Source of the DNA: an uncultured virus (IMG/VR IMGVR_UViG_3300032221_000327)
Lineage: Duplodnaviria; Heunggongvirae; Uroviricota; Caudoviricetes
Virus record (IMG/VR): IMGVR_UViG_3300032221_000327
Direction: 5' to 3' (one strand)
Length of the DNA stretch: 20,000 nt
Part shown: piece by piece, positions 7,743 to 17,308 of the stretch
How positions within the stretch are numbered: position 1 is the stretch's first letter
Layout of the letters: the number at the start of each line of letters is the position of its first letter
Notes under the pieces: generated by a model
The model's input: only the letters and a program-made list of their open reading frames with translations
The model's database searches: none
What the model was told of the DNA's origin: nothing
Position numbers and translations under genes: made by a program

Positions 7743-7798
7743 TTACTTGGGTGAACGGACGCAACGGTGCCGCTGGCTTGCGGCTTCTTCGCGGAAGC

Positions 7799-7830
7799 AA
7801 TAAAAAGGGCCCCTTGCCGGGGGCCCTTTC
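7799..7830. terminator. intrinsic terminator (stronger on the minus strand)
   Basis: AAAGGGCCCC-TTGCCG-GGGGCCCTTT inverted repeat with A-tract on the left. Confidence 0.65.
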
Positions 7831-8311
7831 AGGGATCGGCGCACACAACGCCAACCCCAACTGGAAATGTCCGACCCCATTGTGGCTCCCCTTGCAGCCA
7901 GCCATGCACTCCATTGTGCCAACTGCTCCACTGTCACAATTAAGTTTGACAGGGGTGCCTAGACTCGTCCCCGGTCTGACCTTCCAGCAACAACGCGCCT
8001 GGGCAGACCACTCACACCGGCCAGCGGCGCTCCTGAAGGGGAGAGGCGATGGAGGGAATGTAGGGGCAGTAGCCTCCGCTGAGAGGCAGCACGCGAGGGA
8101 GCCCCAAGCGGGCCTGTCAAGCTGCCTCTCCCCACTCCCCCTCCTGCATACTTCTTCTCCATAAACCTTCGCAAGAGCGCCATTGAAAAGGTGGCGAGCC
8201 CCAAGCGAGCCTTAGTCAGGCGCTCCTTCCCCCTTCTCTGCTCTCTTTCTTAAAAGGCTTGCAGGAATGAACGAAAGGGCTTAAGCTGGCCGAGCCATCA
8301 ATGCCCATGCT

Positions 8312-11152: not shown

Positions 11153-11331
11153 CCGAGAATCAAAGCAAGTTGTTGGATGATGCTTTTGATCAGTGGTGGC
11201 TTAACGAAGGCAGCGGAATGGTACCGCTGTCGAGCCGTGATCACGTCCTCCCCCGCCACATCGCTCGCATCGCCTGGCACAACGGGGCCTACGTCAAGCT
11301 CCATCAGATTTCGCCCCCGGAGGCACCATGA
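11149..11331 (+). CDS. hypothetical phage protein
   Basis: 60 aa; AFDQWWLNEGSG...RIAWHNGAY; overlaps both neighbours. Confidence 0.7.
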   Translation: MTENQSKLLDDAFDQWWLNEGSGMVPLSSRDHVLPRHIARIAWHNGAYVKLHQISPPEAP

Positions 11332-12014
11332 CCATTCTCACGAAAAACACCGACCAGCTACGCCGCGTTGTGGCCGAGCACATTGCGGCTGATGCAGTAG
11401 TGCAGGGGAGCTATTGGGACCCGAACAGCGAACGAGGCTGCTTCATCGGCTGCCTTGCGCATTCCAATGACCCCTCCGTTCCAGAGCGGGTGTACGGGTT
11501 GCCCGTGATGGTGCAGCGGATCGCAGAATCAATTTTCGAAGCCCTACCTGCTGGGGATGCACGCGCATTCTTTGCGGCGCTGCCGGAGGCAGTGGCCTGC
11601 GACGGCAAGGACTTGACGAGGGTGGGCTGGCAGTTCCTGGCCGCCGAGCTGCGCAGTCTGCCGCCGCAACCGCCGGAGCTTCAAGCAGTCGTCGACCCGG
11701 TGATCACCGGCATGGATCTGATGGCGGAAGGGCAGGTTTGGTCAGAGGCCGCCGCCAGGGCCGCCGGGGCCGCCGTCTGGGCCGCCGTCTGGGCCGCCGA
11801 CTGGGCCGCCAGGGCCGCCAGGGCCGCCAGTGCCGCCGGGGCCGCCGGGGCCGCCGACTGGGCCGCCGACTGGGCCGCCAGTGCCGCCAGGGCCGCCGTC
11901 GGGGTCGCGGTGGCCGTCGCCGAAGACAGGGAAGCGGCAGGTCTGGCCGCCCGCCGCCGTCAGTGGGACTTGCTGCTTCAGCTCATCGCCTCCGCTCCCA
12001 TGGGTGGACTATGA
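11328..12014 (+). CDS. GCFIGCLAH-motif protein with Ala-rich repeat (paralogue of 15774..16442)
   Basis: N-terminal ~110 aa align by eye with the 15774 ORF; C-terminal AAx/AAxW repeats. Confidence 0.8.
   Translation: MTILTKNTDQLRRVVAEHIAADAVVQGSYWDPNSERGCFIGCLAHSNDPSVPERVYGLPVMVQRIAESIFEALPAGDARAFFAALPEAVACDGKDLTRVGWQFLAAELRSLPPQPPELQAVVDPVITGMDLMAEGQVWSEAAARAAGAAVWAAVWAADWAARAARAASAAGAAGAADWAADWAASAARAAVGVAVAVAEDREAAGLAARRRQWDLLLQLIASAPMGGL
11748..11903 (+). repeat. in-frame GCCGCC-based 9/12-nt tandem repeat
   Basis: About 16 units of GCCGCC followed by AGG, GGG, AGT, GTCTGG or GACTGG. Confidence 0.9.
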
Positions 12015-12099
12015 ACAGCGACAATCACGCCACCACTAACCACCGCCCGCCACTAACGCAATCCGCTTCTTAGCCTGATTGCAGACGCGCCTATGCAAA

Positions 12100-13026
12100 G
12101 TGATCGCCACTGATGGCCAATGGTTTGAACTCAACGATCGGCGCCTCACGGGCCTAGCAGGTTCCCATACGTGGAACAACGTGCAATCCATGGGGGGCGT
12201 TCTCGCCCCCTTAGGCACAGGCAACATCGTTCGGCTCTGGGCGTCAGAAGCTGACACGCTCAACACTAACTATGGCCTCCGTTGGGACAGTGATAAAATC
12301 ATTCCCATTGACCCTATTCCTTGGGCTCGCAATGATAAAGGCAAGTATGACTTGTCCGTTGTTCAGCCTGCTTTCCTGCATCGCCTCTCTCAACGAGTGA
12401 GGGCAGCAGCCCGCAATGGGCAGATTGCTATTGTCAACCTGTTTGAAGGGTCATTGTTCGGTAAGAGCTGGCAGTGGCACGCCTTCAACCCAGTCAATAA
12501 CACCCAGCGCATTGGCCCACGGTCCATTGAGGCAGTTCACACGCCAGGACCATGGAACAAAATGCAGTGGCACTACGCTAAGACGGTCGTTCAGGCTCTC
12601 GCAAGAGAGCCCAATGTCATCTGGGAAATTGGTAACGAACTGCAAGGAAGAAGCAAGTCCGTTACATTTTCCAATCGGCTCATTGAGCGTCTCAATGCGT
12701 GGACGAACCAGCCCGTAGGGGCCAGTCATATTCACAATGTAGATTGGCAATGGATGAAAAGTAGTGGTGCGGATTGGTTCTCCCCCGCCACTTCACCATC
12801 GTTTCGCCCTCCCCTGCCAGGGCCAGTGGTTTGGGACAGTGATCATGCCACGCCTGGAAGGTCCAATGCTGAGCTATATGCAGAGGCCAGCAGAAGTGGT
12901 ATGGTGCCCCTATTGATGGACAGTTGGCGCAATTCTGTGCTGAACTTTCCTTCCATGGACAGTGATCGTGACGCAATTACTGGCCTGGCCACCAGTCGCT
13001 TGTTCTTCGCCCGAAACCAGCCATGA
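12100..13026 (+). CDS. glycoside-hydrolase clan A-like TIM-barrel protein (DUF6298-like)
   Basis: GSHTWNN, IVRLW, P.PW.R...KYDL, VNLFEG, HAFNPVNN, NVIWEIGNE (acid/base NE), PVVWDSDH; start uncertain (GTG 12100 or TTG 12079). Confidence 0.65.
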   Translation: MIATDGQWFELNDRRLTGLAGSHTWNNVQSMGGVLAPLGTGNIVRLWASEADTLNTNYGLRWDSDKIIPIDPIPWARNDKGKYDLSVVQPAFLHRLSQRVRAAARNGQIAIVNLFEGSLFGKSWQWHAFNPVNNTQRIGPRSIEAVHTPGPWNKMQWHYAKTVVQALAREPNVIWEIGNELQGRSKSVTFSNRLIERLNAWTNQPVGASHIHNVDWQWMKSSGADWFSPATSPSFRPPLPGPVVWDSDHATPGRSNAELYAEASRSGMVPLLMDSWRNSVLNFPSMDSDRDAITGLATSRLFFARNQP

Positions 13027-13466
13027 CGGCTTCTTATCAGCTCACCGTCACCGAGGCCCAGTTGCAGTGCATCATGGCCGCCACTGACTTGTATCAGCGT
13101 GTTCAGTTGGGACAATGGCAAGAAATTATGACTTCCTTGCCGCTGCAAAAGCCCGTGGATTGGCAACTGCTGCGTGATACTTTCGACAGCATGTCTTCTC
13201 TTCTGGCTCCCCACTGCATTGACAACGTAGACGGAAAAGGATCGTCCCTAGGGGTGGGGCATCCTGCCTTGCCTGCCGACAACAGCATCGCCTACGACAT
13301 CCACCGCACCATCCGCCACAAACTAGCCTGGCAGAGAGCCGTGAGCGAAGGCATTGTCGCCAGTGAAACCAGCGCCCGCAAGTGGCCGGAAATGCTCACC
13401 GTTGACTACGACGCACCAATGAAGTGGTCAACTGAACCGCTCCCCACCATTGAACAACTGCCTTAG
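13023..13466 (+). CDS. hypothetical phage protein
   Basis: 147 aa; ATGA overlap; followed by a terminator. Confidence 0.75.
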   Translation: MTASYQLTVTEAQLQCIMAATDLYQRVQLGQWQEIMTSLPLQKPVDWQLLRDTFDSMSSLLAPHCIDNVDGKGSSLGVGHPALPADNSIAYDIHRTIRHKLAWQRAVSEGIVASETSARKWPEMLTVDYDAPMKWSTEPLPTIEQLP

Positions 13467-13481
13467 CCCCGACAAGCAAGC

Positions 13482-13511
13482 AAAAGAAAGGGGCCTTTCG
13501 GCCCCCTTCTT
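13482..13511. terminator. bidirectional intrinsic terminator
   Basis: GGGGCC-TTTC-GGCCCC flanked by AAAAGAAA and TTCTT. Confidence 0.7.
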
Positions 13512-13648
13512 GCAACGGATTCCGATACGCCCGCTCCTGGCCTCTAGCCAGGGACCAGCCCCCTCGCGCCCAGTTGCGTGGCTGCCATCGCTGTACAGCC
13601 AAACTGGTCAGACGCGCCCAGCCTTACGGGAAGGGCCATCGCGTTGCC
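13482..13648 (-). ncRNA. candidate structured non-coding RNA (~165 nt)
   Basis: Extended -10 TGgTATGAT at 13654-13662; terminal pairing GCAACG/CGTTGC; nested stems; own terminator; no convincing ORF. Confidence 0.5.
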
Positions 13649-13681
13649 TAGAAATCATACCACGGTTCAGGGGCGAGCCCC

Positions 13682-13715
13682 AAAAGAAACCCCCAGAAGC
13701 GTGACCTCCTGGGGG
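13682..13715 (-). terminator. terminator of the Sm-like/Gly-X operon
   Basis: CCCCCAG...CTGGGGG stem followed by TTTCTTTT on the minus strand. Confidence 0.7.
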
Positions 13716-13739: not shown

Positions 13740-13979
13740 TCAGGATGGGCGCCTGCCCCTGTGAGGCGAGCAGGTGCCGTAGCCGCCGCCGCTACCGTAG
13801 CCGCCGCCGCCACCGTTGCCGTAGCCGTTGCCGTTGCCGTCGCCATAGCCGTAGCCGTTGCCGTCGCCATAGCCGTAGCCGTCGCCGTAGCCGTAGCCGT
13901 TGCCGGAGCCGTAGCCGTAGCCGTAGCCGTAGCCGTAGCCGTAGCCGTCGCCGTCGCCGTAGCCTATCGGGCGGAACAT
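13740..13979 (-). CDS. Gly-X (Y/D/N/S) repeat protein
   Basis: MFRPIGYGDGDGYGYG...; ATG overlaps the upstream TGA (TGATG); terminator follows. Confidence 0.7.
   Translation of the reverse strand: MFRPIGYGDGDGYGYGYGYGYGYGSGNGYGYGDGYGYGDGNGYGYGDGNGNGYGNGGGGGYGSGGGYGTCSPHRGRRPS
13776..13964 (-). repeat. hexamer tandem repeat GGC-NNC
   Basis: About 31 units GGC(TAC/GAC/AAC/TCC/GGC/AGC/TAT). Confidence 0.9.
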
Positions 13980-14299
13980 CACAGCCCCCAGTCGTCAGCC
14001 ACCGGCACCGAGAAAATCTCGGCACCAGCAGGCATGTCAACGTCGGCCATGGGCCTGAGGTCCGCTTTGGACGGGTTTTCAATCACTTTTGAGAACCCGC
14101 AGGATTCCCATCTAAACACCCACACGCAGCGGGACAGCCGGATGCGCCCGTCCTCGCGCACAACGTCGCCCGCAAAGATCCAGCCTCTGTCAACAACGAC
14201 CACGGCACGGTTGCCCGTGGTCTGGCGCGGCACATATTCCTCGCCATTGACGACGATACGTCCGTCAGCAAAAACAATGTTGTGGTTTGGGAGTCCCAT
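13979..14299 (-). CDS. small beta-barrel (Sm/DUF6948-like) protein
   Basis: Start ATG 14299; AVVVVDRGWIFAGD...IRL....VFRW...G motif. Confidence 0.65.
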   Translation of the reverse strand: MGLPNHNIVFADGRIVVNGEEYVPRQTTGNRAVVVVDRGWIFAGDVVREDGRIRLSRCVWVFRWESCGFSKVIENPSKADLRPMADVDMPAGAEIFSVPVADDWGL

Positions 14300-14426: not shown

Positions 14427-14798
14427 ATGCTGTCTTCTATTCTGCTCAAAGTCCTTGCTGCCACTGCCTTTCTCGCGCCCATGGCCGCCCTTCCTGCCTC
14501 CGCTGCGGCATCCTGCGGCCCTGCCAGTTGGTACGGCCAAGGCGACGGCTTCGCCTGGCGCACCATGGCAAACGGTGCCCCGATGAACCCTTCTGCCATG
14601 ATCACGGCCCATCGCTTCCTGCCTTTCGGCACGCGCCTGCGAGTGACCAACCAGCACAACGGACGGTCAGTGGTGGTGCGAGTGACCGATCGGGGCCCCT
14701 ACGCTGGTGGGCGGGTGCTGGACCTTTCCCACGGTGCTTTCGCTGTCATTGCCTCCCCAGGGCAGGGCGTAGCCAGGGTGTGCTATCAGGCAGTTTGA
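14427..14798 (+). CDS. rlpA: RlpA-like (DPBB) lytic transglycosylase family protein
   Basis: Signal peptide, ASWYG, TMANG, TAHRFLPFGTRLRVTN, VVVRVTDRGPY..GRVLDLS..AF; start revised to ATG 14427. Confidence 0.92.
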   Translation: MLSSILLKVLAATAFLAPMAALPASAAASCGPASWYGQGDGFAWRTMANGAPMNPSAMITAHRFLPFGTRLRVTNQHNGRSVVVRVTDRGPYAGGRVLDLSHGAFAVIASPGQGVARVCYQAV

Positions 14799-15773: not shown

Positions 15774-16442
15774 ATGATGATTCACAATTTCACAAAGCTC
15801 AAGGCTGAAGTTGAAAAGCACGTTCGTGCTGACAAGGTAGTGCAGAGAATATATTGGGATTCGGAAAATCAGCGCGGCTGCTTTATTGGCTGCTTGGCCC
15901 ACAGCAGTAACCCATTCTTTATTGCTCGGGAATACGGCATCCCTGTGTCTGTTTTAGAGCTGGCGGAGTCAATCTTTGAGAGTCTTCCTGCCGATGAGGC
16001 TCCTAAGTTCTTCGCTGCATTTCCTGATGCCGTTGGTGGCGATGGAAAAGAATTACATGGTGTGCCGTTCCTGTTCCTGGCGGAACAACTGCGGCAAGTG
16101 CCGACAGACGGTGCCATGTTTCCAGTGGCCGTGCAGTCTGCGCTGGGCCGATGGGCCGATGGCTTGGAGCTTATAGCCAGAGACCAACCGTGGCGCGACT
16201 ATGAAGAGGCGAGGGCTGAACTGGCCTGGGTGCGGGGTAATGAGTCTTCTGCGTATGGGGAGCTGTGCGGCTCTCTGTGCGTAGAGGGCGATGATCCTGC
16301 CTTTGGTTGTCTGTATGGGGAAATGCAACGCTTTCTCGTACCCGGTTTGACGTATTTCTGTTCAGAAAGGCAAGCTCTAGCCATGCTGCAGCGCGACTTG
16401 CTGCTCAGGCTGGTGCGTGAGGCTCCCTACGTTGTCTCATAA
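15774..16442 (+). CDS. GCFIGCLAH-motif protein (paralogue of 11328..12014)
   Basis: Shared H..AD.VVQ..YWD....RGCFIGCLAHS, AESIFE.LPA, DGK.L, and C-terminal Q.DLLL.L...AP. Confidence 0.8.
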   Translation: MMIHNFTKLKAEVEKHVRADKVVQRIYWDSENQRGCFIGCLAHSSNPFFIAREYGIPVSVLELAESIFESLPADEAPKFFAAFPDAVGGDGKELHGVPFLFLAEQLRQVPTDGAMFPVAVQSALGRWADGLELIARDQPWRDYEEARAELAWVRGNESSAYGELCGSLCVEGDDPAFGCLYGEMQRFLVPGLTYFCSERQALAMLQRDLLLRLVREAPYVVS

Positions 16443-17023: not shown

Positions 17024-17308
17024 ATGACTGCCTCCAAAACCGCTCAAGTGCGCCAGTTCATCCGTTCCGCTGGAAGTACCATCGTTTCCGTCACTTTCCG
17101 CAAGGCTGACGGTACGCTCCGTTCGCTGCAGTTCAACCCCCGTGATCGGCAGGAAGTTAAGGGCACTGGCACGGCCACCAGGCCGCCTGAGATTGTCTGC
17201 TGCCGTGACTTCCGCATTGCTCGCACGCAAGGGCAAGGCGCCTGGCGTTCGTTCAACGCCGAGCGAGTGGTAACGCTCAGGGCCAATGGCAAAGAACTGG
17301 CTTTGTGA
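17024..17308 (+). CDS. WYL_2/DUF2693-like SH3 beta-barrel protein
   Basis: VSVTFRKADGTLR ... AWRSF motif. Confidence 0.65.
   Translation: MTASKTAQVRQFIRSAGSTIVSVTFRKADGTLRSLQFNPRDRQEVKGTGTATRPPEIVCCRDFRIARTQGQGAWRSFNAERVVTLRANGKELAL

Follow-up and report, generated by a model that had tools for sequence, protein, structure and literature searches.

The minus strand of the DNA studied here carries, between a plus-strand operon that ends at 13466 and a gene pair read on the minus strand, a segment for which an independently transcribed phage RNA had been predicted, and the question it raises is whether such an RNA gene exists and, if so, what its product would do. The window (the whole 20,000-nucleotide stretch that was analysed, from an uncultured virus) is a phage replication/early region with genes for a dCTP deaminase, an exonuclease, a Sak-like annealing protein, a primase/helicase, and an rlpA-like protein. 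Its nearest relative among GenBank phages is the Synechococcus siphovirus S-CBS4 (Sak, 47%; primase, 57%), in which the gene order matches, and near-identical DNA is present in public metagenome runs, several of them labelled lake or freshwater; no RNA data set is among the runs listed, a result that has no bearing on expression. Phage context, conserved promoter spacing, a terminator, and covariation all fit the original prediction. By these sequence comparisons, minus-strand positions 13647-13482 appear to be a real feature, a non-coding RNA gene of an S-CBS4-like cyanophage, whose product we judge to represent a real and new family of orphan phage structured RNA. The features are collected in the table.

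Features of the RNA locus and its surroundings (positions in the window)
Feature	Position	Strand	Evidence or remark
Predicted non-coding RNA, about 166 nt	13482-13647	minus	136-nt folded body (13647-13512) plus terminator
Extended -10 element TGnTATGAT, host sigma-70 type	13654-13662	minus	sequence; predicted start 13647
P1, terminal helix	13647-13638 with 13520-13512, C13641 bulged	minus	6/6 counted pairs change on both sides
Near-invariant G, one nt between P1 and P2	13637	minus	97% conserved
P2	13636-13633/13619-13616	minus	100% paired; U-A to C-G change in 5/33
Invariant CC-GYRA-GG hairpin	13629-13622	minus	GUAA in the window copy; conservation table
Large arm P3-P7	13527-13615	minus
P3	13615-13610/13532-13527	minus	5/5 pairs change on both sides; directly after P2, no linker
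P4	13609-13601/13561-13553	minus	9/9 pairs change on both sides
P5	13600-13592/13587-13580, GCGA loop	minus
P6	13578-13576/13569-13567, loop AACUGG	minus
P7	13552-13546/13542-13536	minus
Junction strand J3/1, AUCGGA	13521-13526	minus	100% conserved in alignment A5
Intrinsic terminator: GC stem, GNRA loop, U tract	13482-13505	minus	hairpin z -3.93
Upstream terminator of the inserted two-gene operon	13682-13715	minus	hairpin z -2.73
Inserted gene pair, not part of the RNA system	13740-14299	minus	ORFs
rlpA-like DPBB_1 gene, lytic transglycosylase-type	14436-14798	plus	PF03330, E 5e-24

Homologues of the RNA were recovered by fetching 68 primase-relative loci and searching them by nhmmer with the window RNA alone. 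They lie on the minus strand, 5-9 kb downstream of the primase, with a best E value of 6.7e-9 (the hold-out searches gave 6.7e-9 and 6.8e-8). A consensus pattern then brought the number of IMG/VR stretches to 82, of which 81 show the family core by eye, and the cultured phage S-CBS4 is among the homologues, with an unannotated copy at NC_016766 64537-64730. All 64 chosen non-identical loci score 60 to 155 bits with a covariance model, many of them being training sequences; the window copy, also inside the training set, scores 64 bits with model R1. Exactly one copy is found in S-CBS4 and in each of the eight primase-relative records that are at least 90% complete; these are all the primase-relative records of at least 65 kb that were fetched, and their carriage of the RNA was known beforehand. 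Among records 17-89% complete, 1 of 24 has the RNA, and the largest that lack it (L367, L382, and L356) end about 1 kb or less from the primase. The fold is uncatalogued, and every near-complete genome examined of this cyanophage lineage, which is widespread in fresh and estuarine waters, has kept it. The S-CBS4 copy, from a phage cultured with its host Synechococcus CB0101, makes direct tests possible.

Outside recognized phage records, a pattern scan of GTDB gave 25 matches, three of which belong to the family (L466, L473, and L475, all on short MAG contigs) and 22 of which are chance-like; no cellular copy was found in GTDB by the strict pattern, and a plasmid search gave no match to the RNA. 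The most divergent member, L434:2991-3169, lacks P6 and loop 6 and lies on a contig shared with L473, which is binned in a Rhodobiaceae MAG and resembles a phage of the same lineage. Exact window patterns found nothing, a single coding-region match (L081), or at least 113 and at least 120 loci that are dissimilar by blastn/nhmmer, and were rejected. When the window RNA was compared with GenBank phages by blastn, only terminator-like stretches matched; since this search missed the S-CBS4 homologue, blastn is too weak for the family.

The extended -10 box TGGTATGAT is present at 13662-13654, where it had been predicted, as are the GC terminator and the upstream terminator, both of which fold as hairpins. 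Taken alone the -10 pattern is at chance level, occurring once in the window versus 1.37 times expected, and it is the fixed spacing in homologues that takes it beyond chance: of 34 representatives, which share less than 88% identity, 33 have TG-N-TA-NNN-T, and its end lies about 6 nt ahead of the first base of P1. The distance from the box to the core rises with the length of P1, while the start of P1 stays about 6 nt past the box, and the proposal that the RNA has its own promoter is borne out to this extent. Downstream, a hairpin and U tract follow within a few bases of P1 in all 34 sequences inspected by eye, and in close relatives the loop of the terminator reads GCAA in place of GAAA. 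The hairpin can fold on both strands (z of -3.93 on the minus and -2.93 on the plus strand), and the terminator probably also stops the convergent plus-strand operon. The upstream terminator would insulate the RNA promoter from the inserted operon.

Comparison with known RNAs agrees with the original prediction, which recognized no tRNA or riboswitch consensus. The window reached no Rfam 15 family at the gathering threshold; eight homologous loci and the L362 region, searched at the same threshold, and eight further loci, searched by E value, gave only sub-threshold matches, mostly to the terminator. ARAGORN reported no tRNA or tmRNA gene in the window, and a CCA after P1, sought as a tRNA-like end, is absent from the window copy. 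Short-word likenesses to rRNA, the cobalamin riboswitch, and the T-box were dropped, given their different structural contexts and the lack of an Rfam match. A conserved short ORF had been named as a competing explanation of the region, and none is seen across the family: ORFs from the AUG of loop 6 are between 2 and 83 aa long and occur in all three frames (for a few rows another triplet was chosen), and core length modulo three divides 11/7/16 with no fixed multiple of three, so that no conserved peptide accounts for the region. No description of this RNA was found among the titles and abstract openings searched, and the available portion of PMC2864571 names only manA, wcaG, and PhotoRC-II as cyanophage RNAs.

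Structure conservation in the homologues is strong. In MAFFT alignment A4, with 33 sequences and no model fitting, 95.6% of cells pair (98.5% for P1), and both sides change in 28 of the 37 pairs; 0 of 500 shuffles match this and slid controls give 44-48%, the pairs tested having been picked on the same alignment. In the predicted fold, three three-way junctions are nested about an invariant core made up of the single G, P2, CC-GYRA-GG, and AUCGGA. P2 has the family consensus GYCC/GGRC and is closed by optional hairpins P2a and P2b together with the CC-GYRA-GG hairpin. The large arm passes through a P3/P4/P7 junction and a P4/P5/P6 junction before AUCGGA returns the chain to P1. The invariance of AUCGGA arises partly by construction, as the motif was part of the search pattern; it is also invariant in 17 nhmmer-found sequences of alignment A3. 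Close relatives show at least five substitutions in the body, two of which are a compensatory U-A to C-G change at 13597/13583 (runs X6 and X10); the others listed are one G-C to G-U change and two at positions unpaired in the final model. A pseudoknot search across the family supported none, the top mutual-information pairs being the nested helices, and no loop-loop complementarity held apart from a palindrome in loop 6.

All seven stems proposed originally are indeed complementary sequence, but about half of that structure has to be revised, with 17 of the 36 pairs falling in the covariation-supported fold. The closing stem (13647-13642/13517-13512) and the hairpin 13552-13547/13541-13536 are retained, as are five of the six pairs of 13601-13596/13584-13579. 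The stem 13636-13633/13532-13529 holds in 2 of 33 homologues, its 5' strand pairing instead with 13619-13616, and 13641-13638/13526-13523 holds in none of the 33, because 13526-13521 is the invariant unpaired AUCGGA. Likewise, 13575-13570 gives way to 13561-13553 as the partner of 13609-13601.

The window copy is the shortest of the 64, with a core of 117 nt compared to a median of 160 nt, in a family whose RNAs range from 136 to 195 nt. P2a and P2b are missing after 13632, a short P2 domain that is shared only by L351 and L438; L351, which has the same loss of P2a and P2b, is the sister of the window copy on the tree (support, 97). Loop 6 reads AACUGG where GCAUGG is usual, so the CAUG is lost. 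Nature has thereby supplied a deletion map, in which two hairpins and the loop-6 motif are dispensable and the junction core is not. It also yields a 136-nt construct suited to probing and to crystallographic or cryo-EM work, with named bases to mutate. What the window adds is this minimal natural form, a corrected helix map, and a candidate tertiary contact.

Folding energy says less. Body plus terminator gives z = -4.47 against shuffles, a strong value that is due to the terminator: the body without it gives z = -1.54, with 17 of 200 shuffles as good, and the median over 34 representatives is -1.05. Single-sequence folding is weak evidence here, and it is the homologues that place the fold beyond chance. 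In the window copy the comparative fold (-59.2) lies 5.6 kcal/mol above the minimum free energy structure, in which the long arm of the original prediction takes the place of P3, P4, and P6, these having near-zero pairing probability. The window copy may rely on tertiary contacts, switch, misfold, or be partly decayed.

The junction linkers are 0, 6, and 1 nt long, a geometry that would place P1 side by side with P2. In the GYRA loop, the third base (13625 in the window copy) has one P1 pair (13642/13517) as its best covariation partner (z = 8.3), with GYAA in 16 of 18 cases where that pair is G-C and GYGA in 36 of 46 where it is A-U. The direction agrees with the GYRA/helix receptor rule as given in the accessible text of PMC7913685, by which CC:GG helices prefer GYAA and CU:AG helices prefer GYGA. 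The window copy combines GUAA with CC:GG; the neighbouring pair in P1 frequently departs from the classical receptor. On a tree of 63 rows, with L438 left out and the three tested columns dropped, the P1 pair changes about six times, and three to four independent contrasts agree with the association while none oppose it (sign-test median p, 0.25). Docking of the GYRA loop on P1 is therefore suggestive, and not significant after tree control. The third base of the P5 tetraloop also covaries with a P4 pair (alignment A5, columns 110 and 83/184; z about 11.7); this pairing is non-canonical and departs from the receptor rule, and may reflect a second tertiary contact or shared ancestry.

As to function, we lean, at somewhat less than even confidence, toward an early, trans-acting, compact RNA whose core binds a host protein. 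The invariant bases are grouped at one three-way junction while the helix sequences turn over freely, which favours a compact RNA recognized by shape and acting in trans rather than an antisense RNA. Host sigma-70 RNA polymerase would transcribe the RNA early in infection; P2 and P3, with no linker between them, would stack coaxially, and P1 would double back and let the invariant GYRA hairpin dock on it, with G13637 and AUCGGA at the centre of the compact core that results. More speculatively, the core could be a shape-specific site for a host regulator, nuclease, or defence factor, which the RNA would titrate or scaffold, with P2a, P2b, P6, and P7 serving as variable struts at the periphery. 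These peripheral hairpins are dispensable, P2a and P2b being gone from the window copy and L351 and P6 from L434, and a weak folding z is expected if tertiary or protein contacts stabilize the fold. If the core does bind a host factor or metabolite, it would represent a new RNA-based route of cyanophage host takeover.

No partner protein was identified, and two known kinds of RNA-protein pair were considered by way of their protein. In retrons, the msr-msd RNA has a terminal inverted repeat followed by an unpaired conserved G, a feature that the cyanophage RNA shares in P1 and the G that directly follows it. It differs in having a branched 3' part rather than one long hairpin, and the retron reverse transcriptase domain PF00078 was found in none of the nine genomes (control positive in 3 of 14). 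The Y RNA/YrlA partner Ro60 (TROVE, PF05731) was likewise found in none of the nine phage genomes (control positive in 2 of 14).

Alternatively, the invariant junction might be a small-molecule pocket, in a free aptamer for a host metabolite or second messenger, or the active site of a new ribozyme. The three-way junction, its short linkers, and its invariant bases would suit such a role, and a promoter and terminator of its own would make a free RNA. Docking of a loop on a helix at a three-way junction is the architecture of the hammerhead and of the purine and c-di-GMP-I aptamers, which have two coaxial helices and a long invariant junction strand. The cyanophage RNA resembles them in its invariant junction strand, predicted coaxial helices, and candidate loop-helix contact, but differs in its core letters, and no Rfam riboswitch or ribozyme matches it even below threshold. 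There is also no expression platform and no regulated gene downstream; no conserved co-oriented gene follows the RNA in the family, where downstream genes are convergent and variable. For a ribozyme in particular, promoter and terminator account for both ends, and cleavage is unneeded. We consider a pocket or active site unlikely, and a free catalyst, or a free aptamer for a host small molecule such as a nucleotide alarm or defence signal, distinctly doubtful; if true, it would be an RNA counterpart of phage sponge proteins, with the 136-nt window copy as the minimal version.

It seems quite improbable that the RNA forms RNA-only oligomers, as a small analogue of ROOL, GOLLD, or OLE, through a palindromic CAUG kissing loop in loop 6 and A-minor contacts. 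According to the part of PMC12286853 available, kissing loops with palindromic sequences connect the units of OLE and GOLLD multimers, and GOLLD and ROOL share with the cyanophage RNA that they are phage-encoded, stand-alone, covariation-rich, and orphan in function, with several GNRA-type loops. In the same text they are several-fold larger, GOLLD frequently exceeding 800 nt, contain pseudoknots, and in many cases lie close to tRNA islands, whereas the cyanophage RNA is of modest size, lies beside rlpA, has no covarying pseudoknot, and does not match their Rfam models. A Watson-Crick 4-mer palindrome does occur in 30 of 32 loop-6 sequences, and another palindrome in three of the five loops without CAUG. 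The CAUG is inherited, however, so the 30 palindromes are not independent; the window copy has no palindrome in loop 6 and L434 has no loop 6, and no other loop-loop pairing is kept across the family.

A by-product or cis element, serving the rlpA promoter region or merely insulating convergent operons, finds some support in the position of rlpA as the divergent upstream neighbour in 63 of 64 loci and in a terminator able to fold on either strand. GNRA loops, G-U pairs, promoter, and U tract all mark the strand opposite rlpA, though, and an insulator would need no invariant junction. Moreover, the window keeps the RNA although about 780 bp of inserted DNA, which carries a terminator of its own, lies between it and rlpA, and L434 keeps it with no intact rlpA nearby, its record holding only a broken remnant elsewhere (two stops; E, 9e-4). 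This reading is very unlikely. Two viral structured RNA candidates, DNAVirus_786 and DNAVirus_8392, are listed upstream of DPBB_1 genes in the available part of PMC10690425. Like the cyanophage RNA, they come from aquatic Caudovirales of IMG/VR and adjoin DPBB_1 genes; they differ in being 74 and 106 nt long and in having members that lie no more than 25 bp from the DPBB_1 start, and by size and closeness they are more likely to be rlpA leaders. Some of the 10,006 candidates of that study may overlap the present family or contain a fragment of it.

To a packaging or virion RNA like the phi29 pRNA, which resembles the cyanophage RNA in size, in its three-way junctions, and in having a promoter and a terminator of its own, we give very little credence: the cyanophage RNA has no interlocking loops or covarying complementary loop pair, and the phage has a terminase-type motor, S-CBS4 carrying ordinary TerL and portal genes about 10 kb from the RNA. 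Equally hard to credit is a base-pairing sRNA or small-protein mRNA, suggested by the usual AUG of loop 6, sometimes behind a GGAG-like strand, given conserved single-stranded words of only 4 to 6 nt and the variable ORFs described above.

The inserted gene pair encodes a hypothetical protein of about 106 aa, with 293 relatives in IMG/VR and no Pfam or PHROG match, and a Gly-Tyr/Gly-Asn repeat ORF coupled to it by a TGATG overlap. The cassette has a promoter-like site at 14353-14325 and separates the RNA from rlpA, which directly adjoins the RNA promoter at almost every other locus of the family. It is described as a mobile two-gene unit, and, at E below 0.9, none of 80 loci with close relatives of the operon's first gene has the RNA within 3 kb. 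A small Sm-like/WYL_2 protein (phrog_2267) is encoded at 17024-17308 on the plus strand and in all eight near-complete uncultured relatives, 1-5 kb from the RNA; with S-CBS4, which has the RNA and in which the gene was not found, this makes 8 of 9 genomes, and the protein is a possible RNA-binding partner.

Other features of the window include a promoter/terminator-like intergenic element at 7797-7885 on the minus strand. It matches Rfam BjrC68 weakly (E, 0.018), for the most part over the terminator hairpin, and is possibly a second small RNA. The plus-strand ORF at 8874-9650 matches phrog_645, labelled "Rnase E," with no RNase E Pfam match, and the label looks doubtful; pattern searches found no relatives of this ORF or of 13023-13466. 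The 315-aa protein encoded at 12079-13026 (plus) has a weak match to glycoside hydrolase family 5 (E, 0.002), below the cut-off. Finally, 11328-12014 and 15774-16442 (plus) encode paralogous uncharacterized proteins with a common N-terminal region that includes GCFIGCLAHS, the former with an Ala-rich repeat tail.
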